DNA of 64,000 nucleotides from the sequence record KY703222; one strand, written 5' to 3'. Of the stretch, positions 1,217 to 60,752 are shown one piece after another. Both the position numbers and the translations under genes were made by a program. The DNA is from Escherichia phage phiC120. Within the stretch, counting starts at the first letter, position 1. Every line of letters starts with the position of its first letter. Under the pieces are notes generated by a model. That model was given only the letters and a program-made list of their open reading frames with translations, did no database searches and was not told where the DNA came from.

Positions 1217-2949
1217 TGGAAATGATTAGTAGTAGCCTTAATTGGTTCGTTGGTGTTGTTGAAGACAGAATGGACCCATTGAAACAAGGGCGTGTTCGAG
1301 TTCGAGTCGTAGGACTTCATCCAGCGCAGAGAGCACAAGGTGACGTACAAGGTATTCCTACCGAAAAACTTCCATGGATGACTGTTATTCAACCTATTAC
1401 ATCGGCATCAATGTCGGGTATTGGTGGTTCTGTTACAGGCCCTGTCGAAGGAACTCGAGTATATGGTCATTTCTTAGACAAATGGAAAACAAACGGTATT
1501 GTACTCGGTACATATGGTGGAATTGTACGCGAAAAGCCTAATAGACTAGAAGGTTTTTCCGACCCTACAGGTCAATATCCACGACGTTTAGGTAATGATA
1601 CGAACGTATTAAACCAAGGTGGTGAAGCTGGTTATTATTCGAATTCTAACGTAATTCAAGACAACAACTTGGATTATGGTATAAACCCAGATGATACAGA
1701 TTTAGCAAATATTCCAGAAGATGATGACCCTAATTTTACAATAACAGAAATGTTACGTCGTGATGAAGGTCTTCGTGATAAAGTGTATTGGGACCATCTA
1801 GGGTATCCTACAGTAGGTATTGGACACCTTATCGTAATGGAAAAGACCCGAGACATGACTCGAATTAATAAATTGTTATCCGATCAAGTAGGGCGTGAAG
1901 TAACAGGAAATCCAGGAACTATTACATTAGAAGAAGCAACAGCTCTATTTGAGAAGGACCTTGCTAAGATGCAGAAAGACATTCGTTCTAATTCTAAAGT
2001 AGGTCCTGTTTATGCTAAAATGAACAGGTCTCGTCAAATGGCATTAGAAAACATGTGCTTCCAAATGGGCGTTGGCGGTGTAGCAAAATTCAATACTATG
2101 CTTAAAGCAATGGCCACAGGTGATTGGAAAACTGCATACAAATCTGGGCGTGATTCATTATGGTTCCAACAGACTAAAGGGCGTGCTTCACGTGTAACAA
2201 CAATTATTTTAACTGGTAACATGGAATCATATGGCGTTCCTGTTAAAACACCACCTTCACCAGGAGTCGGTGCCGATTTAGTTACTAGAAATACCGATTC
2301 AGAAGACCCTGCCGGTCCTCCTGTTCCATTAGATTCACGCATCCTTTTTAAAGAACCAGAATCAAGTTATCGTGGTGAGTATCCGTATGTTCATGCTATG
2401 GAAACAGAAAGTGGTCATATCCAAGAATTTGACGATACTCCAGGTAATGAACGTTATCGCTTAGTTCATCCAACAGGGTCATATGAGGAAGTTTCTCCGT
2501 CTGGGCGTCGTACTCGTAAAACTGTAGAAGACCTTTTTGACATCACTAATGGTGATGGGAACTTTTTGATTTCTGGCGATAAGCTTGTTAACGTTGGTGC
2601 TAATGAAATATATTATAACATGGCAGACCGCCTCCATCAAATAGATGGCAATGACACAATCTTTATTCGTGGCAACCAAGTTAAAACTGTTGAAGGCGAT
2701 GGAACTCTTTACGTTAAGGGCAATATCAAAATAGTCGTTGACGGGAATGCAGATATTCTTGTTAAAGGCGATGCTAAAACTCAAGTTGAAGGTAATCATG
2801 ACTATACTGTCAATGGTAATGTTAAATGGACTGTTAATGGTAATGTTGATATGACTGTTGCTGGGGATTGGGCAGAAACGATGTCTACAATGAGCTCAGT
2901 AGCTTCAGGACAATATACTGTTGACGGATCTCGTATTGATATTGGGTAA
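1216..2949 (+). CDS. 5: baseplate hub subunit and tail lysozyme gp5
   Basis: 577 aa; OB-fold N-terminus, central T4-lysozyme-like domain, C-terminal VxGxxxxx beta-helix repeats (VKGD/VEGN/VNGN). Confidence 0.95.
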   Translation: MEMISSSLNWFVGVVEDRMDPLKQGRVRVRVVGLHPAQRAQGDVQGIPTEKLPWMTVIQPITSASMSGIGGSVTGPVEGTRVYGHFLDKWKTNGIVLGTYGGIVREKPNRLEGFSDPTGQYPRRLGNDTNVLNQGGEAGYYSNSNVIQDNNLDYGINPDDTDLANIPEDDDPNFTITEMLRRDEGLRDKVYWDHLGYPTVGIGHLIVMEKTRDMTRINKLLSDQVGREVTGNPGTITLEEATALFEKDLAKMQKDIRSNSKVGPVYAKMNRSRQMALENMCFQMGVGGVAKFNTMLKAMATGDWKTAYKSGRDSLWFQQTKGRASRVTTIILTGNMESYGVPVKTPPSPGVGADLVTRNTDSEDPAGPPVPLDSRILFKEPESSYRGEYPYVHAMETESGHIQEFDDTPGNERYRLVHPTGSYEEVSPSGRRTRKTVEDLFDITNGDGNFLISGDKLVNVGANEIYYNMADRLHQIDGNDTIFIRGNQVKTVEGDGTLYVKGNIKIVVDGNADILVKGDAKTQVEGNHDYTVNGNVKWTVNGNVDMTVAGDWAETMSTMSSVASGQYTVDGSRIDIG

Positions 2950-2952
2950 TAT

Positions 2953-3468
2953 ATGGCACAAATACTTCCTTTAAATACCGACTTAGGAGAAGACATGGAA
3001 GGGGCGTCTATTGACGTCCTTTTTACTCCGCAGTTAGAAACTACCGAAACTTTGGTGTCAATAAATATAATAGATTATGAACCAACACAAGGCATTACAG
3101 TTGACGGTAATCACTTATATGGAACATATGAAAGCGTATTTAGCTTTTCTTCAGATGCATTGAAATATCGATTAAACGATGATTTTAAAACTGCATCTTC
3201 ATGGGAAGATTTACCACAAGACCAAAGCACTCAACTATATTTGTGGAGAGCTCCTCAGAACCTCCGTAAAGTATTTAGTTATACGGTTGAAATGATTTAT
3301 AACTACCAAGAAGAAAGTTCATCAGGCGGTTCTAGAAGTGACTCTGGTACAGAACCTCCACCGGCTCCAGTACAAAAAACTCTTACTAAGGTTTATACAA
3401 AAACTATAGTAGGAAATTGGAGCAAATGGGCTCAACAATTACGAAACTATGTTTATGCGAGGCCATAA
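2953..3468 (+). CDS. 5.1: gp5.1-like protein
   Basis: 171 aa ORF at the T4 5.1 position between 5 and 5.4. Confidence 0.7.
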
Positions 3469-3772: not shown

Positions 3773-5743
3773 ATGGCAAACACTCCTGTAAATTATCAGT
3801 TAGTCAGAACGGCGAATGCTATTCCCGAAATTTTTATCGGGGGCACATTTGCCGAAATTAAAACAAATATAATCGAATGGCTCAATGGACAGAACGAATT
3901 TCTTGATTATGATTTTGAAGGTTCGCGTTTAAACGTATTGTGTGACCTTTTAGCATATAATACTCTTTATATCCAACAGTTCAGTAATAGTGCAGTGTAT
4001 GAAAGCTTTATGCGTACTGCTAACTTGCGCAGTTCCGTTGTACAAGCGGCTCAGGATAATGGATATCTGCCTGCATCTAAATCGGCAGCACAAACAGAAA
4101 TTATGCTCACATGTACGGATGCATTAAATAGAAACTATATCACTATTCCGCGTGGTACTCGTTTCCTGGCGTATGCTAAAGGTACTTCTGTTAACCCGTA
4201 TAACTTTGTTTCCACCGAAGACGTCATTGTAGTTAAAGACAAAAATAATCAATATTTCCCACGTCTTAGGTTAGCTCAGGGACGTATTGTTCGTACTGAA
4301 TTAACATTTGATAAATTAAAACCTATCATTATTCGTGATAAGAACATTGACCGTAATTTGGTTAAATTGTATGTTGACGGAGCAGAATGGATTAACTGGA
4401 CTCGCAAATCGATGGTTCATGCTGGTTCTACTTCAACCATTTATTATATGCGAGAAACTGTTGACGGGAACACTGAATTTTATTTTGGTGAAGGTGAAAT
4501 CTCTATTAACACATCAGAAGGTGCTTTAACATCTAACTACATTGGCGGCCTTAAACCTGTCCAGGGTTCTAAAATCGTAATTGAATATATTTCTACTAAT
4601 GGTGCTGAAGCAAATGGTGCAGTAGGATTCTCTTATGCTGATACATTAGCTAATATCACAGTTATTGGAATTAATGAAAACCCAAGTAATAACCCTGACT
4701 TCGTTGGTGCTGATGGCGGTGGCGACCCTGAAGATATTGAACGTATCCGTGAATTAGGTACAATTAAACGCGAAACTCAACAACGATGTGTGACTGCGAC
4801 CGATTACGACACATTCGTCTCTGAACGATTTGGTTCTATTATTCAAGCGGTTCAGACATTTACGGATTCATCTAAGCCTGGGTACGCATTTATTGCTGCT
4901 AAACCTAAGTCTGGGCTATATTTGACTTCCGTCCAACGAGACGATATTAAAAATTATCTTAATGAGTATAACTTAGGGACGATAACTCCTGTTGTTATTT
5001 CTCCTGATTATTTGTTTATTAAAATGAATATTCGCGTTACGTATGCATTGAACAAATTACAGGAATCTGAACAATGGTTAGAAGGCCAAATTATTAATAA
5101 AATCGACCGGTATTATATTGAAGACGTGGAAATTTTTAACTCGTCATTCGCAAAATCTAAAATGCTAACGTATGTAGATGACGCAGATATTTCTATCATT
5201 GGTTCGTCTGCGACTATTCAAATGGTTCGCGAGGTACAGAACTTCTACAAAACACCTGAAACAGGTATTAAATACAATAACCAGATTAAAGATAGAACAT
5301 TAGAATCTAACGTGTTTTCATTTGATAGTTTACGCGTTGACCCTGAAACGGAAGCTACTATTAAATACGACGTTCGCATTGTAGGTTCAGATAGAAATGA
5401 CCGTGGCATTGGACAAGTTATTATTGGCCCGTTTGCAGATGGCGACGTTATAGAAAATGCTTATATTCAACCATATACTGGTGACGATTTTAATAAACTT
5501 CATGTTACGGACGGAAGAAACAAATATTACTCTATAGGTGAAGTAAATTATCCGGCTGATTCAATTTATTGGAATATAGCTAAAATTGATTTAACTTCTG
5601 ATAGGTTTGAAGTTCAAACTATTGAACTCTATTCAGACCCAGCTGATGATGTTATCTTTACTAAAGACGGGTCATTAATTGTATTTGAAAATGACTTACG
5701 TCCGCAATATTTAACCATAGATTTGGAGCCTATTTCACAATGA
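3773..5743 (+). CDS. 6: baseplate wedge subunit gp6
   Basis: Start MANTPVNYQL matches recalled T4 gp6; about 656 aa. Confidence 0.93.
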   Translation: MANTPVNYQLVRTANAIPEIFIGGTFAEIKTNIIEWLNGQNEFLDYDFEGSRLNVLCDLLAYNTLYIQQFSNSAVYESFMRTANLRSSVVQAAQDNGYLPASKSAAQTEIMLTCTDALNRNYITIPRGTRFLAYAKGTSVNPYNFVSTEDVIVVKDKNNQYFPRLRLAQGRIVRTELTFDKLKPIIIRDKNIDRNLVKLYVDGAEWINWTRKSMVHAGSTSTIYYMRETVDGNTEFYFGEGEISINTSEGALTSNYIGGLKPVQGSKIVIEYISTNGAEANGAVGFSYADTLANITVIGINENPSNNPDFVGADGGGDPEDIERIRELGTIKRETQQRCVTATDYDTFVSERFGSIIQAVQTFTDSSKPGYAFIAAKPKSGLYLTSVQRDDIKNYLNEYNLGTITPVVISPDYLFIKMNIRVTYALNKLQESEQWLEGQIINKIDRYYIEDVEIFNSSFAKSKMLTYVDDADISIIGSSATIQMVREVQNFYKTPETGIKYNNQIKDRTLESNVFSFDSLRVDPETEATIKYDVRIVGSDRNDRGIGQVIIGPFADGDVIENAYIQPYTGDDFNKLHVTDGRNKYYSIGEVNYPADSIYWNIAKIDLTSDRFEVQTIELYSDPADDVIFTKDGSLIVFENDLRPQYLTIDLEPISQ

Positions 5744-27593: not shown

Positions 27594-29162
27594 ATGACTA
27601 CTATCAAAACTAAAGCTCAGCTCGTAGACAAATGGAAAGAACTGCTGGAAGGTGAAGGCCTGCCGGAAATCGCTAATAGCAAGCAGGCTATTATCGCTAA
27701 AATCTTCGAAAACCAGGAAAAAGATTTCGAAGTATCCCCTGAATATAAAGACGAGAAAATCGCTCAGGCATTTGGTTCTTTCTTGACCGAAGCTGAAATT
27801 GGTGGTGACCATGGTTATAATGCTCAGAACATCGCAGCGGGTCAAACCTCTGGTGCAGTAACCCAAATTGGGCCGGCAGTTATGGGTATGGTTCGTCGTG
27901 CTATTCCTAATCTGATCGCTTTTGATATTTGTGGTGTTCAGCCTATGAACAGCCCGACCGGTCAGGTATTTGCTCTCCGTGCAGTATATGGTAAAGACCC
28001 TATCGCTGCTGGCGCTAAAGAAGCTTTCCACCCGATGTATGCCCCAGACGCGATGTTCTCTGGTCAGGGTGCTGCTAAGAAATTCCCAGCTCTGGCTGCT
28101 GACACTACTACTGTTGTAGGTGATATCTATACTCACTTCTTCCAAGAAACTGGTACTGTATATCTGCAAGCTTCTGCTGTCGTAACACTTGATTCTGGTG
28201 CAACTGATGCAGCTAAATTAGATGCAGAAGTTAAGAAACAAATGGAAGCTGGTGCACTGGTAGAAATCGCTGAAGGTATGGCTACTTCTATCGCTGAACT
28301 CCAGGAAGGTTTCAACGGTTCTACCGATAACCCATGGAATGAAATGGGCTTCCGTATCGATAAACAAGTTATCGAAGCTAAATCTCGCCAGCTGAAAGCT
28401 GCTTACTCTATCGAATTAGCACAAGACCTCCGTGCAGTACACGGTATGGATGCTGATGCTGAACTGAGTGGTATTCTGGCTACAGAAATTATGCTAGAAA
28501 TCAACCGTGAAGTTGTTGATTGGATTAACTACTCGGCACAGGTCGGTAAATCTGGTATGACCCTGACTCCTGGTTCTAAAGCTGGTGTATTTGACTTCCA
28601 GGACCCGATTGATATCCGTGGTGCTCGTTGGGCCGGTGAAAGCTTTAAATCTCTGTTGTTCCAGATTGATAAAGAAGCAGTTGAAATTGCTCGTCAAACC
28701 GGTCGTGGTGAAGGTAACTTCATTATCGCTTCCCGTAACGTAGTTAACGTACTGGCTTCAGTTGATACTGGTATTTCTTACGCTGCACAGGGTCTGGCTT
28801 CCGGTTTTAATACTGACACTACTAAGTCTGTATTTGCCGGTGTACTTGGTGGTAAATACCGCGTATACATCGACCAGTATGCTAAACAGGATTACTTCAC
28901 CGTTGGTTACAAAGGCGCTAACGAAATGGATGCAGGTATTTACTATGCTCCTTACGTTGCACTTACCCCACTGCGTGGTTCCGATCCTAAGAACTTCCAG
29001 CCGGTAATGGGCTTTAAAACTCGTTACGGTATCGGTGTTAACCCATTTGCTGAAAGTTCCCTGCAGGCTCCAGGTGCTCGCATCCAGTCCGGTATGCCGT
29101 CTATCCTGAACAGCCTTGGTAAGAACGCTTACTTCCGCCGTGTATATGTAAAAGGCATCTAA
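27594..29162 (+). CDS. 23: major capsid protein gp23
   Basis: 522 aa; synteny. Confidence 0.96.
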   Translation: MTTIKTKAQLVDKWKELLEGEGLPEIANSKQAIIAKIFENQEKDFEVSPEYKDEKIAQAFGSFLTEAEIGGDHGYNAQNIAAGQTSGAVTQIGPAVMGMVRRAIPNLIAFDICGVQPMNSPTGQVFALRAVYGKDPIAAGAKEAFHPMYAPDAMFSGQGAAKKFPALAADTTTVVGDIYTHFFQETGTVYLQASAVVTLDSGATDAAKLDAEVKKQMEAGALVEIAEGMATSIAELQEGFNGSTDNPWNEMGFRIDKQVIEAKSRQLKAAYSIELAQDLRAVHGMDADAELSGILATEIMLEINREVVDWINYSAQVGKSGMTLTPGSKAGVFDFQDPIDIRGARWAGESFKSLLFQIDKEAVEIARQTGRGEGNFIIASRNVVNVLASVDTGISYAAQGLASGFNTDTTKSVFAGVLGGKYRVYIDQYAKQDYFTVGYKGANEMDAGIYYAPYVALTPLRGSDPKNFQPVMGFKTRYGIGVNPFAESSLQAPGARIQSGMPSILNSLGKNAYFRRVYVKGI

Positions 29163-29186
29163 TCTTAATTGATTAAATCTTATTTT

Positions 29187-29204
29187 GGGAGACTTCGGTC
29201 TCCC
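29187..29204 (+). terminator. rho-independent terminator GGGAGAC-TTCG-GTCTCCC plus T-run after gene 23
   Basis: Perfect hairpin followed by ATTTTT; identical to the hairpin at 9840. Confidence 0.75.
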
Positions 29205-29214
29205 ATTTTTGGTT

Positions 29215-29484
29215 TTATTTCTGTGCAATTTCGATGTAAGTTTTCAAAATATTTTGCCAATTAGGCATACCTTCTTGGACATATGCTGGAGAACCGTCTT
29301 TGTTTTTGAATGATGCAAGTTTATCAGTGGCCCAATAACCTTTAGCTCGAGCTTCAGAATCAACTTTAATCCATACTTTGTTGAAGGCATTACCATTAAC
29401 TTTTGCACCATATTTTTCTACTAACTTAACCGCTTCAGCTTCCAGAACTTTTAAAGTATCTCGTAAGAAACGTGCTTTAGTCAT
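29215..29484 (-). CDS. hypothetical early protein (89 aa), opposite strand between genes 23 and 24
   Basis: ORF with GAGGAG SD and its own early-type promoter; no motif recognised. Confidence 0.6.
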   Translation of the reverse strand: MTKARFLRDTLKVLEAEAVKLVEKYGAKVNGNAFNKVWIKVDSEARAKGYWATDKLASFKNKDGSPAYVQEGMPNWQNILKTYIEIAQK

Positions 29485-29514
29485 TTTGTTTACTCCTCTG
29501 TAGTTGATAAGTCT

Positions 29515-29544
29515 ATAGTATCACATACCAAATACGTTGTAAAC
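29515..29544 (-). promoter_or_regulatory. early promoter GTTTACA-N17-TACTAT
   Basis: Minus-strand GTTTACA, 17-nt spacer with TGTGA, TACTAT -10; upstream of the 89-aa ORF. Confidence 0.55.
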
Positions 29545-29550
29545 AATCTT

Positions 29551-29558
29551 TATAAATA
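29551..29558 (+). promoter_or_regulatory. late promoter TATAAATA for gene 24
   Basis: Exact octamer 27 nt upstream of gene 24 ATG. Confidence 0.65.
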
Positions 29559-29584: not shown

Positions 29585-30865
29585 ATGAGTAAAATCCAAA
29601 AATTATTGCGTGAATCTACAACGTCTACTAGCAACTCAATCGGTCGCCCAAATCTCGTTGCTTTGACTCGCGCTACGACTAAATTAATATATTCTGACAT
29701 TGTAGCAACACAAAGAACTAATCAACCTGTTGCTGCTTTTTATGGTATTAAATATCTTAACCCAGACAACGAATTAACATTTAAAACTGGTGCTACTTAT
29801 GCAGGTGAAGCTGGATATGTAGACCGAGAAAAAATTACCGAGCTCACAGAAGAATCAAAAGTCACACTAAATAAAGGCGATTTTTTCAAATATAATAATA
29901 TCGTCTATAAAGTGCTAGAAGATACACCATTTGCAGATATTCAAGAAAGTGATCTAGAATTAGCTCTTCAGATTGCAGTTGTTCATTTAAAGGTACGGTT
30001 ATTTTCAGATGCAGCTGTGACAAGCAAATTTGAAAGCTCTAGTAGCGAAATTTCTGATGCAAGATTCCAAATTAATAAATGGCAAACTTCAGTCAAATCT
30101 CGTAAACTTAAAACCGGTCTCACGGTTGAATTAGCGCAAGATTTAGAAGCGAATGGATTTGATGCCCCTAACTTCTTAGAAGATTTGCTTGCTACTGAAA
30201 TGGCTGATGAAATTAATAAAGATATTCTTCAGTCTTTAATTACTGTATCGAAACGTTATAAAGTTACTGGAATTACTGACACCGGATTTATTGACTTGAG
30301 CTATGCGTCTGCTCCGGAAGCAGGTCGTTCGTTATATCGAATGGTGTGTGAAATGGTATCACACATTCAAAAAGAGTCAACTTATACTGCGACGTTTTGT
30401 GTAGCTTCAGCTCGTGCAGCTGCTATTCTTGCTGCTTCCGGTTGGTTAAAACATAAGCCAGAAGATGACAAGTATCTTTCACAAAATGCTTACGGGTTCT
30501 TAGCTAATGGTTTACCGCTTTATTGCGATACTAACAGCCCATTAGATTATGTGATCGTTGGCGTAGTAGAAAATATCGGTGAAAAAGAAATTGTTGGATC
30601 AATTTTCTATGCTCCGTATACAGAAGGTCTCGACTTAGATGACCCTGAACATGTTGGTGCATTTAAAGTTGTAGTTGATCCAGAAAGCTTGCAACCGTCT
30701 ATTGGTTTATTGGTTAGATATGCTTTATCTGCGAATCCTTACACAGTAGCAAAAGATGAAAAAGAAGCGAGAATAATTGATGGCGGGGACATGGATAAAA
30801 TGGCAGGACGTTCGGACTTGTCTGTTTTACTTGGTGTTAAATTGCCTAAAATTATTATAGATTAA
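29585..30865 (+). CDS. 24: head vertex protein gp24
   Basis: 426 aa; paralog-like similarity to gp23; synteny. Confidence 0.93.
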   Translation: MSKIQKLLRESTTSTSNSIGRPNLVALTRATTKLIYSDIVATQRTNQPVAAFYGIKYLNPDNELTFKTGATYAGEAGYVDREKITELTEESKVTLNKGDFFKYNNIVYKVLEDTPFADIQESDLELALQIAVVHLKVRLFSDAAVTSKFESSSSEISDARFQINKWQTSVKSRKLKTGLTVELAQDLEANGFDAPNFLEDLLATEMADEINKDILQSLITVSKRYKVTGITDTGFIDLSYASAPEAGRSLYRMVCEMVSHIQKESTYTATFCVASARAAAILAASGWLKHKPEDDKYLSQNAYGFLANGLPLYCDTNSPLDYVIVGVVENIGEKEIVGSIFYAPYTEGLDLDDPEHVGAFKVVVDPESLQPSIGLLVRYALSANPYTVAKDEKEARIIDGGDMDKMAGRSDLSVLLGVKLPKIIID

Positions 30866-30895: not shown

Positions 30896-31903
30896 TTATG
30901 ATACTAATTCAATCCATGCAGGACGCAGAACATCTTGCACCATTCGGACTAATTCTTTCTTAACAAGATTCGGATTATCAGATGATGTTAATACAATACC
31001 TTCACGAGAAGTTTCTTCAAGAATATCTTGAACAGTCAATCCCATCACTTTGCCAAAATCTTTCGGAGTTACAGTCCCAATCTTAGAAATCACATTGTTA
31101 ACACGATTTAGTGTAACATAACAAGCTAGAACATCAAGCAAGTTTTTGTCAATTTCAGTTAATGGAACCTGAGTTTTAATAGGCTTATCAGACTTTTTCT
31201 TTTCACTGAATTTAGAGTTCTTGCACTTAATCGCTACACGAGTACCGTTTGGCAGCCATTTAGGGAAACAAGGCTTCAGAACATAACCTTCTGCCGTATT
31301 ATCGCCAATAACATTAGCATCAAATACGCAATTATTTGCTTCGACAAGGTCTTCTGACGCAGTAGCGTTATAAGCGGCTAAGACGGAATCAAGGTCGTTT
31401 GGAATCATGATAAGAGCATCAAATGTTCCACGTCCAAGCATTGGTGCCATTTTAAAACCAAACGTATTACAGAAATCTTGCATTTCGTAATCACTCATGT
31501 AATAAGTATCACCGCTTTCAGTGTTTATGATGATATCGAATACATAGAAATCTTTTTCACCGTAGTCAACACCTTTCTGAATTCCACCACCAGCGAATTC
31601 ACCAAAGACTTGATATGTCACCGGCACTGAAGTTGAAATACTGCCCATGACTTCCTGAACGGCTTTAATAGCTTTATCATACTTCTTGAGTACGATTTCG
31701 TAACCGTAAAAATCTTCTGCTGGAAGAATAGGGCCTGTGCGCTTGGCGCATGTGACGTTGTCACGTTCAATTATTAACGAGAAGTTAGTCCCATGGATTT
31801 TCTCACGTGCTACCCAAACGCCAGTAGTCAAACCATTAGTGTAGAGTTTTTCAATAAACTTAGAGTTGTAGTGGTTTTCAAGACTGCTGTATTTCTTAAA
31901 CAT
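30896..31903 (-). CDS. rnlB: RNA ligase 2 RnlB
   Basis: 335 aa; nucleotidyltransferase motif I KIHGTN; strong match to recalled T4 Rnl2. Confidence 0.92.
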
Positions 31904-32274: not shown

Positions 32275-32471
32275 TTCTTCACCTTTTTGTTAATCAAACG
32301 TTTACGGTATACAACTTTTTCTTTTGCTTTAAACTTTGACCGAGCTGTCTCGGCTTTAGTCCATAGTAATCCAACTTCTTTAGGTTGTAAACCGATTTTT
32401 TGAGCAATTTCTACGAATGAAAATCCCGCCTCATGTAATGTATAAACTTCAACTTCAGCTCTCATAATCAA
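32271..32471 (-). CDS. hypothetical small basic protein with HTH-like segment (T4 24.3-like position)
   Basis: 66 aa; helix-turn-helix-like GFSFVEIAQKIGLQPKEV and Lys-rich tail. Confidence 0.6.
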   Translation of the reverse strand: MIMRAEVEVYTLHEAGFSFVEIAQKIGLQPKEVGLLWTKAETARSKFKAKEKVVYRKRLINKKVKK

Positions 32472-45139: not shown

Positions 45140-45169
45140 ATAGTATCACACATCCATGTGCTTGTAAAC
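45140..45169 (-). promoter_or_regulatory. early promoter GTTTACA-N17-TACTAT
   Basis: Minus-strand AGTTTACA, 17 nt containing TGTGA, TACTAT; just downstream of alt stop. Confidence 0.5.
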
Positions 45170-55599: not shown

Positions 55600-55629
55600 A
55601 TAGTATCACAACTCCACCATGTTGTAAAC
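55600..55629 (-). promoter_or_regulatory. early promoter GTTTACA-N17-TACTAT
   Basis: Minus-strand GTTTACA, 17 nt with TGTGA, TACTAT, 30 nt upstream of the 78-aa ORF. Confidence 0.55.
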
Positions 55630-57695: not shown

Positions 57696-57752
57696 TTAGA
57701 TTTCCTCAATTATCCATAGGAGCATTATACTCTGCTCCCGAGAGTTTGTAAA

Positions 57753-57977
57753 CTATTTTACTAAAGATTCGATATACTCATGAAGAGCTTTAGTCGCTAC
57801 TGCCCACTTGTTTTGGTATTCATTTTTCAGATTAGCACGAGACTGAACTAACAAGCGGTCATTAGTCGGAGGCAAAGATTCTAATCGTTGAATCTGGCGC
57901 CCATAAATCATAGCCGCCATTTCAGATTCATAGATAAGCCCTTTAATGTATTCATGCTGTTCTTTAGTCATTGGCAT
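57753..57977 (-). CDS. hypothetical protein (74 aa)
   Basis: ORF overlapping the o-spanin stop. Confidence 0.5.
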   Translation of the reverse strand: MPMTKEQHEYIKGLIYESEMAAMIYGRQIQRLESLPPTNDRLLVQSRANLKNEYQNKWAVATKALHEYIESLVK

Positions 57978-59129: not shown

Positions 59130-59159
59130 ATAGTAACACCTTCCTTGGTGTTTGTAAAC
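59130..59159 (-). promoter_or_regulatory. early promoter GTTTACA-N17-TACTAT for alc
   Basis: Minus-strand GGTTTACA, 17 nt, TACTAT, 30 nt upstream of alc ATG. Confidence 0.55.
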
Positions 59160-60295: not shown

Positions 60296-60341
60296 TCAGT
60301 TAGTTTTTTTAAATTGTACCACAATCCTTGTGGTATGTAAA

Positions 60342-60752
60342 CTACTTTTTCTTATGTTGGATATTCCAAGGCGGGTTGAACTTTTTGATAAAAAGCGGTT
60401 CTTCAAGGTCCATTGTTGCGATGGTCATTGAACCAAGTTCGTTGGTGACTGAAAGGTCAAAACATTGGCGGGCCCAGAATTCAACCTTTTTACCTTGCAT
60501 TAAGGCATCCAAAATCATAAGTGATTTTCTTGAATCTGAAGTCTGGTCTTTTCGATTTATGGCTGTTCGATAATAGTTAATGCGTTTCTTTAAATTCTTG
60601 GTTTTACCAATATACACAAGTTCGTCATCTATAGCAATAGCGTATATGACATTTTTCTTATTAGGGGCATCAATGGTTTTAATTGTTGCATCTTCTAATA
60701 GCTCCAATTCTATATATTTAATAAAGGAATATTCGGCGGCAATATCTTTCAT
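60342..60752 (-). CDS. denA: endonuclease II DenA (GIY-YIG family)
   Basis: 136 aa, same length as T4 DenA; GIY-YIG motif VIYAIAIDDELVYIGKT. Confidence 0.85.
   Translation of the reverse strand: MKDIAAEYSFIKYIELELLEDATIKTIDAPNKKNVIYAIAIDDELVYIGKTKNLKKRINYYRTAINRKDQTSDSRKSLMILDALMQGKKVEFWARQCFDLSVTNELGSMTIATMDLEEPLFIKKFNPPWNIQHKKK

Follow-up and report, generated by a model that had tools for sequence, protein, structure and literature searches.

We analysed a stretch of 64,000 nucleotides (nt) from Escherichia phage phiC120 (sequence record KY703222), hereafter the window, which derives from a T-even phage genome of the genus Mosigvirus (RB69-like). Our subject is an open reading frame (ORF) of 89 amino acids that lies in antisense between the late capsid genes 23 and 24, an interval that we refer to as the 23/24 slot. 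A first-pass annotation had described this ORF as an early gene with a GAGGAG Shine-Dalgarno (SD) site and its own GTTTACA-N17-TACTAT promoter, insulated on one side by the terminator of gene 23 and on the other by the late promoter of gene 24. The ORF, the SD site and the promoter are present exactly as described, and both insulating signals bracket the ORF at the positions given for them. The features of the slot and its flanks are as follows.

27594-29162, plus strand: gene 23, major capsid protein, an ORF of 522 amino acids with the gp23 annotation at the matching position in PhAPEC2 and RB69; left flank of the slot
29186-29215, plus strand: gene 23 terminator, with the hairpin GGGAGAC-UUCG-GUCUCCC at 29186-29205 followed by a T run; found by terminator scan and annotated in PhAPEC2
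29215-29484 including the stop codon, minus strand: the 89 amino acid ORF with ATG start, between genes 23 and 24, of the RB69ORF188c/189c, PhAPEC2_170, JS98 orf173 and PHROG 6003 family
29498-29493, minus strand: SD site GAGGAG, 8 nt 5' of the ATG at 29484, read from the sequence
near 29508, minus strand: predicted transcript start, for leftward transcription
29515-29523, minus strand: extended -10 element TGaTACTAT of the early promoter (TACTAT at 29520-29515), with TG one base 5' of the hexamer and a 17 nt spacer from the -35 element
29544-29538, minus strand: -35 element GTTTACA of the early promoter, a T4-type early signature
29551-29558, plus strand: gene 24 late promoter TATAAATA, 27 nt before the gene 24 ATG at 29585
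29585-30865, plus strand: gene 24, capsid vertex protein, an ORF of 426 amino acids, 96 % identical to T4 gp24; right flank of the slot

The ORF is a conserved protein-coding gene

A 551 nt query across the ORF slot matched 239 phage records, the top match being Escherichia phage FP43 with 99.6 % identity, and PhAPEC2, APCEc01, ST0, JS09 and HX01 are about 99 % identical to the same query. At the protein level, tblastn detected the ORF in 238 phage records, and in 236 the match covered 80 % or more of the protein. These records fall into 119 with 80 to 99 % identity, which we call the Mosigvirus type, and 119 below 60 %. The window protein is 98.9 % identical to the best-matching Mosigvirus isolates among the matches listed, for example APCEc01 and ST0. 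In Gaprivervirus VR7 and in Dhakavirus JS98 and 04086, distant copies with 31 to 38 % identity occupy the corresponding antisense position between the two capsid genes, and a family member is likewise located in the slot in two metagenomic T-even contigs. The family has the antisense position also in PhAPEC2, RB69, JK45, AV116, LF82-1 and mogra. The gene products annotated as RB69ORF188c/RB69ORF189c, PhAPEC2_170, JS98 orf173 and VR7ORF190c belong to the same family at the same locus as the window ORF.

The ratio of nonsynonymous to synonymous substitution rates (dN/dS) among Dhakavirus-type alleles is 0.08-0.14 at dS 0.14-0.42, and the protein itself is therefore under clear purifying selection. 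The core GGAG of the SD site is kept in relatives, as GAGGAG in JS98 and JK45 and as TGGAG in VR7. Folding of the 5' untranslated region yields only -0.1 kcal/mol, and since this leader is unstructured the ORF transcript would be translated efficiently. The G+C content of the ORF (35 %) is not distinct from that of the genome (38 %). We conclude that the ORF is a genuine protein-coding gene. The gene is already in databases as a hypothetical protein in many genomes, and its promoter was already predicted for RB69 in 2006. The first-pass annotation had named lack of conservation, or disruption in close relatives, as findings that would speak against it: conservation extends to about 238 records, and disruption does occur, in the RB69 reference and in phage mogra.

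One metagenomic member (P0006, locus 3001-3273), with 61 % identity to the window protein, is listed as 'NADPH-dependent curcumin reductase CurA' in the Joint Genome Institute (JGI) annotation. This name is evidently an annotation error because the protein has about 90 amino acids and lies in the 23/24 slot.

The gene has a promoter of the early class

A generic sigma-70 scan of the region returned 11 sites compared to 13.9 expected from shuffled sequence, and because this count is no higher than in shuffled sequence the scan alone proves nothing. The more specific pattern GTTTAC-N18-TANNNT occurs at 7 sites in the window compared to 1.04 +/- 0.99 expected, a 7-fold enrichment over chance, and none of 100 shuffles reached 7. 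All 7 sites are on the minus strand and each reads GTTTACA; a longer form, GTTTACAA...GTGATACTAT, is common to three of the seven, including the ORF promoter. The ORF promoter is therefore a member of the early-promoter class of the phage, which bears out the early type proposed for it in the first-pass annotation. The six further GTTTACA-N17-TAnnnT sites, which are probably the remaining early promoters of the 64 kb stretch, are all exact matches:

32363-32392, minus strand
45140-45169, minus strand
55600-55629, minus strand
57724-57753, minus strand
59130-59159, minus strand
60313-60342, minus strand

The ORF promoter matches the T4/RB69 early consensus of Nolan et al. 2006 (PMC1524935). It shares with T4-type early promoters the GTTTACA element, the 17 nt spacer, a TAnnnT hexamer with TG upstream and an A/T-rich upstream region, here TATTTATAAAGATT directly 5' of the -35 element and resembling an UP element as judged by eye against the description in PMC1524935. 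An apparent point of difference is that this A/T-rich stretch, read on the opposite strand, is a late promoter. Relatives conserve both promoter elements and the distance between them but not the sequence of the spacer, with GTTTACA-17-TACTAT in JS98 and JK45 and GTTTACA-17-CATAAT in VR7. The homologous site reads GTTTACT-17-TATAAT in Moonvirus NM4.3, which is near consensus, and ATTTACA-17-TATTAT in T4, which is weaker.

Two published datasets bear on the timing and support the early assignment indirectly. A minus-strand early promoter of RB69, Pe:109605, was predicted by a hidden Markov model with a score of 29.9 (PMC1524935 supplement, Nolan et al. 2006), and its position is exactly 5' of the same gene in RB69. 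Time-resolved omics of T4 classify the RNA of segD, the gene that occupies the interval there, as early and the SegD protein as middle (PMC9697503 supplement). From the promoter and these records we infer that the ORF is expressed early.

The early promoter abuts the late promoter of gene 24

The early -35 element on the minus strand and the late TATAAATA box on the plus strand are 6 nt apart and stand back to back (window 29538-29558), so that the sequence serving as the A/T-rich upstream region of the former is the late promoter read on the other strand. RNA polymerase positioned at one of these two abutting promoters would probably exclude binding at the other, and the arrangement could constitute a built-in switch from early to late transcription at the slot. 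The late promoter is present in every occupied and empty slot examined.

At the other end of the ORF, the terminator hairpin folds with -16.8 kcal/mol on the plus strand and -13.5 kcal/mol on the minus strand (z about -4.3 to -4.9). The minus-strand hairpin is followed by AAAAUAAG in the window, with no U tract, and a U tract is likewise missing in JS98 and T4; VR7 has a good terminator on the ORF strand. Judging from this sequence, the hairpin probably stops the ORF transcript only in part. An Rfam scan across the region returned nothing near any gathering score.

The 23/24 slot exists in four states

The first-pass annotation had called the interval a hotspot for accessory DNA, noting that T4 carries segD there, and had described the ORF as inserted. 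T4 does hold segD in this interval, in antisense, and across T-even phages we found the slot in four states: empty, with the ORF alone, with the ORF and segD, and with segD alone. The empty state is found in Tequatrovirus wV7, Karamvirus EnC15, Jiaodavirus KP01 and three IMG/VR contigs with T4-like capsid genes. An empty slot measures about 83 nt and consists of the late promoter, about 16 nt and the terminator, with neither the GTTTACA promoter nor the ORF. The ORF-alone state is that of the window, PhAPEC2, JS98, VR7 and others. The ORF is accompanied by segD in Dhakavirus 04086 and L018, JK45, AV116 and LF82-1, where segD starts 3 nt after the ORF stop in one operon. segD stands alone in T4, in antisense, and in Moonvirus NM4.3.

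Since the empty slots lack the promoter as well as the ORF, the early promoter belongs to the cargo rather than to the capsid module. The comparison of slots indicates that promoter and ORF together are an inserted, exchangeable cassette, and the empty slots of Tequatrovirus, Karamvirus and Jiaodavirus substantiate the word 'inserted'. The distribution of the ORF is patchy, with 238 records carrying it compared to 1381 bearing a gp24 relative, and most T-even genera are without the ORF. The RB69-, JS98- and VR7-like phages have the arabinosyl-hmC modification of their DNA in common, to which the distribution of the gene may conceivably be linked. A tblastn search with T4 SegD found no match in the window slot.

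A 2010 review reported no identifiable promoter specific to segD in T4 (PMC2988022). We observe that segD nonetheless stands under a recognisable early-type promoter, ATTTACA-N17-TATTAT in T4 and GTTTACT-N17-TATAAT in Moonvirus, and that in JK45, AV116 and LF82-1 it is the second gene of the operon under GTTTACA-N17-TACTAT. The corresponding promoter regions are:

T4 locus 1233-1323, minus strand: segD-associated promoter region
Moonvirus NM4.3 locus 1410-1500: segD-associated promoter region
JK45 locus 1398-1500: segD-associated promoter region

The cassette is exchanged between lineages

Phages whose Mosigvirus-type capsid genes are near-identical carry one or the other of two slot-gene alleles, and the proteins of these alleles share only about 31 % identity. 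The Mosigvirus-type allele is found without segD. The Dhakavirus-type allele in a Mosigvirus-type capsid context occurs only with segD among the genomes examined (JK45, AV116 and LF82-1, filed as Tequatrovirus jaykay, Mosigvirus and unclassified, respectively). JK45 and Dhakavirus 04086 are 98.1 % identical at the nucleotide level in the promoter region and 96.6 % in the ORF, whereas the capsid-gene flanks of JK45 are 93 % identical to the window and only about 76 % to Dhakavirus. These identities indicate that recombination inside the conserved flanks, at the promoter and the terminator, has transferred the cassette from one lineage to another. The filing of JK45 under Tequatrovirus by the National Center for Biotechnology Information (NCBI) is at odds with its capsid proteins, the gp23 C-terminus being 100 % and the gp24 N-terminus 97.5 % identical to the window.

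The linkage of one ORF allele to segD in a single operon points to homing-driven co-conversion as the vehicle, and SegD would then probably carry the ORF along. The target of SegD is not known (PMC2988022).

A family of small basic proteins with a confidently predicted fold

The window protein matches the profile of PHROG 6003, a family of unknown function, over its whole length (hmmscan E 6.8e-45, 152 bits, residues 1-89 against profile positions 1-90 of 90). Family members have 84 to 93 amino acids, an isoelectric point (pI) of 8.0-9.9 and a net charge of +1 to +8, with a pI of 9.6 and a mass of 10.1 kDa for the window protein; the protein is small, soluble and basic throughout the family. 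Structure prediction, which the first-pass annotation had recommended, gave a confident model and no specific structural relative. AlphaFold2 with 21 family sequences reached a predicted local distance difference test score (pLDDT) of 94.3 and a predicted template modelling score (pTM) of 0.80, compared to a pLDDT of 63.9 with only 7 sequences. The predicted fold is a three-helix bundle plus hairpin, with helices at residues 3-25, 31-48 and 76-88 and a beta-hairpin at 52-60/66-70.

Positions M1, K3, F6, G31, N32, N35 and Q70 are invariant and N30 nearly so. They include a conserved NGN turn between the first two helices and a conserved Gln where the hairpin ends. Among the polar residues only K3, N32, N35 and Q70 are invariant, and the invariant residues form no catalytic constellation.

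Searches for characterised relatives were negative. No homology to characterised anti-defence proteins was found via Pfam, NCBIfam, PDB sequences, PDB folds or BFVD. NCBIfam and PADLOC gave no match, PADLOC being a collection of defence systems and not of anti-defence proteins. A PDB sequence search with the single protein and with the family profile returned nothing below E 0.07, and the comparison with PDB folds and BFVD gave no match beyond family members, none of the solved structures matching specifically. In an exhaustive HMMER search, 1.84 billion representatives yielded 9 hits, which are family members or fragments plus two giant repeat proteins.

Several candidate identities were considered and rejected. 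The Pfam match to DUF4859 (17.9 bits, E 0.0031) is below the gathering threshold of 22.6 bits and is confined to 3 of 21 members, all of them near-identical ones. The E-values of the two giant repeat proteins (P0013 and P0016) are sums over 8 and 11 short stretches that cover profile positions 19-81 only, and a bacterial Ig-like repeat protein of the Big_2 type was rejected since whole-domain homology is missing and the predicted fold is helical. A GIY-YIG homing endonuclease was rejected on size (89 compared to about 220 amino acids) and on the lack of a GIY-YIG Pfam match in the 21 members. A virion or capsid accessory role was rejected in view of the opposite strand, the early promoter and the annotation of PhAPEC2, in which gp22, gp23 and gp24 are marked as structural virion proteins and PhAPEC2_170 is not.

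The family reaches beyond the T-even phages. In the Vequintavirinae (rV5-like) phage ABPH49 and in metagenomic contigs, members lie inside long co-directional arrays of small unknown genes, which by analogy would be the usual look of an early region. With T-even, rV5-like and siphovirus-like members, the family spans at least three unrelated groups of virulent enterobacterial phages. The siphovirus-like member (P0014, 84 amino acids, locus 3001-3255) lies directly behind a GpJ-type tail tip gene, and divergent replication genes come next, namely a DEAD helicase and a weak hit to a DNA polymerase B exonuclease domain.

Proposed function and alternative explanations

We lean, with modest confidence, towards reading the slot as a self-contained accessory cassette whose early gene encodes a non-enzymatic binder, which would then be a host-takeover or counter-defence factor with no part in capsid assembly. 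The cassette comprises a T4-type early promoter, a strong ribosome-binding site and the 89-codon gene, inserted in antisense into the roughly 16 nt between the gene 24 late promoter and the gene 23 terminator. In the first minutes of infection the host sigma-70 RNA polymerase would transcribe the ORF from about 29508 leftwards, and the shared hairpin would stop the transcript at best partly. The product may bind nucleic acid or an acidic protein of the host or of a rival phage and be of use solely in some hosts or against some competitors. As it has no conserved residues of a catalytic type, it would most likely act stoichiometrically. Alleles are swapped by homologous recombination in the conserved flanks, and the segD-linked allele class would probably be co-converted by SegD.

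A non-enzymatic early binder is our best guess from sequence and predicted structure. The first-pass annotation had proposed a candidate host-takeover or anti-defence factor; the homology and fold searches gave no match that speaks to such a role, and counter-defence would be a plausible and reasonable subset of the binder reading. A bolder proposal is that the family forms a new class of small basic early counter-defence or host-takeover protein, shared horizontally by T-even, rV5-like and siphovirus phages, with the T-even alleles turned over by SegD homing; this we regard as tentative and rather doubtful.

A number of observations weigh against the reading as an accessory binder. In the RB69 reference the gene is split into RB69ORF189c and RB69ORF188c by a +1 and a -1 indel, located in NC_004928 109291-109531 (locus 5292-5532), where the +1 lies inside a substitution cluster and the -1 about 150 nt downstream. 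Phage mogra carries a frameshift in the gene, and a few truncated or fused versions occur among database clusters (P0003 and P0015). The two compensating indels of RB69 could be old sequencing errors instead of real mutations, and more generally the broken copies may reflect faulty sequencing or loss in the laboratory; in both cases the gene is non-essential. Given the disruptions in RB69 and mogra, the gene is dispensable in laboratory culture and any benefit would therefore be conditional. Many T-even genera manage with an empty slot. Neither the basic charge nor the absence of catalytic motifs says much about a mode of action. The literature search found no transcriptome of RB69 or another Mosigvirus that would give direct expression data, which is why we infer the early timing, and no paper on RB69ORF188c, NP_861878 or phrog_6003. 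The only toxicity screen of Mosigvirus early proteins found, in AV110, picked its genes by homology to T4 early proteins and consequently could not include the ORF. Finally, with no U tract behind the minus-strand hairpin, transcription probably continues in antisense into gene 23, which might itself have an effect.

One alternative explanation for the conservation of the ORF is that it is a passenger of the SegD homing element and persists beside the segD insertion point via co-conversion. In a variant of this explanation the ORF may contain or adjoin the SegD cleavage site, or may serve the endonuclease by providing a promoter or translational coupling. The shared operon and early promoter in JK45, AV116, LF82-1, 04086 and L018 fit this, as do the restriction of the Dhakavirus-type allele to segD carriers among the Mosigvirus genomes examined and the JK45 cassette, which nearly equals that of Dhakavirus while its capsid flanks do not. 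T4 and Moonvirus, moreover, hold segD under a homologous promoter without the ORF. However, segD is missing from most carriers (about 119 Mosigvirus records, together with JS98, VR7 and others), purifying selection on the protein is strong, and the homologs in Vequintavirinae and in a siphovirus-like contig have no endonuclease annotated or called alongside. The SegD target, furthermore, is not known. We consider it unlikely that the ORF is mainly a passenger.

It is also conceivable that the act of transcription matters and not the protein, either through an RNA directed against late gene 23 or through occlusion of the gene 24 late promoter, so as to help silence the capsid genes early on, the ORF being incidental. 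The 6 nt between the early -35 element and the TATAAATA box mean that the two promoters physically overlap, the missing U tract after the minus-strand hairpin in the window, JS98 and T4 makes read-through plausible, and the promoter is kept with a different cargo, segD, in T4 and Moonvirus. A dN/dS of about 0.1 together with the confidently predicted fold indicates selection on the protein, and the absence of the promoter from the empty slots of several genera implies that it is not needed for capsid gene control. VR7, furthermore, has a good terminator on the ORF strand, and homologs elsewhere, in rV5-like contigs, are antisense to nothing. A transcriptional role is plausible as a side effect; it leaves the selection on the protein and the empty slots unexplained, and as the main function we find it very improbable.

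That the reading frame is open by chance only, or is the functionless remnant of a decaying gene, as its disruption in RB69 and mogra, the truncated and fused clusters and the lack of a known domain might suggest, is effectively refuted by its conservation and dN/dS: it is intact in about 236 of 238 records, syntenic in three T-even genera at 31-38 % identity, under purifying selection, predicted to fold with a pLDDT of 94 and preceded by a consensus SD site and promoter.

Comparison with known systems and significance

Several known systems resemble the cassette. The T4 segD locus occupies the same slot, likewise in antisense, and its promoter, at the homologous position, also borders on the late promoter of gene 24. 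The cargo is unrelated, and the window ORF has no GIY-YIG motif or endonuclease domain.

Small early accessory proteins with known roles in T-even phages include Arn, Dmd, AsiA, MotB, Acb2/Vs.4 and AdfA, of which Arn is an acidic DNA mimic. The window protein resembles proteins of the Arn, Dmd and AsiA type in size class, in its presumed early expression, in patchy distribution and in laboratory dispensability. It differs in that no solved structure resembles it in sequence or specifically in fold and, unlike Arn, it is basic.

Classical morons are found in temperate phages and are expressed from the prophage. The cassette is moron-like in having its own promoter, a shared hairpin terminator, clean empty sites in relatives and lateral exchange. 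In contrast to morons, the ORF belongs to a virulent phage and to its early programme, and its G+C content is not distinct. An intact copy in the window compared to a reference copy split into two small ORFs sets the window apart from RB69 itself. As to its kind, the gene is a T-even early accessory ORF of the ordinary sort, at a site already known to be plastic.

The present result is mostly tidy annotation of an ORF that is real, promoter-equipped, mobile and selected. What is added here is the description of the slot in four states, the recognition of the promoter as part of the cassette, the lateral exchange and linkage to segD, a confident structural model and the reach of the family beyond T-even phages. 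Should a target be found, the T-even toolbox would gain another small early effector, and for its fold no solved structure gives a specific match. If the counter-defence class were true, a selfish endonuclease and a gene of the arms race would share the slot and move together. Two alleles with about 31 % identity in one genus, one of them linked to segD, offer a convenient natural system for studying co-conversion by a free-standing endonuclease. Because Mosigviruses are widely used as candidates for therapy and biocontrol, accessory genes that affect host range are of practical interest.

Other features of the neighbourhood

No paralog of the 89 amino acid ORF was found within the window. Gene 24 is present in a single copy in the window and in T4, and in two tandem copies (24a and 24b) in Dhakavirus, Gaprivervirus and two metagenomic relatives. 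Directly after gene 24 the window continues with rnlB on the opposite strand, and an additional gene of about 180 amino acids, which the window lacks, is located between gene 24 and rnlB in Moonvirus, Karamvirus and Jiaodavirus. The positions are:

30896-31903, minus strand, window: rnlB
1-2395 and 1-2399, loci of the Dhakavirus and Gaprivervirus relatives: tandem 24a/24b
337-2901 and 338-2897, loci of the two metagenomic relatives: tandem 24a/24b
2814-3377, Moonvirus locus: insert of about 180 amino acids between gene 24 and rnlB
2817-3362, Karamvirus locus: the same insert
2812-3360, Jiaodavirus locus: the same insert

The inserted gene is named 'DNA recombination-mediator protein A' in one record, and the stretch from gene 24 to rnlB may form another variable slot beside the 23/24 slot.

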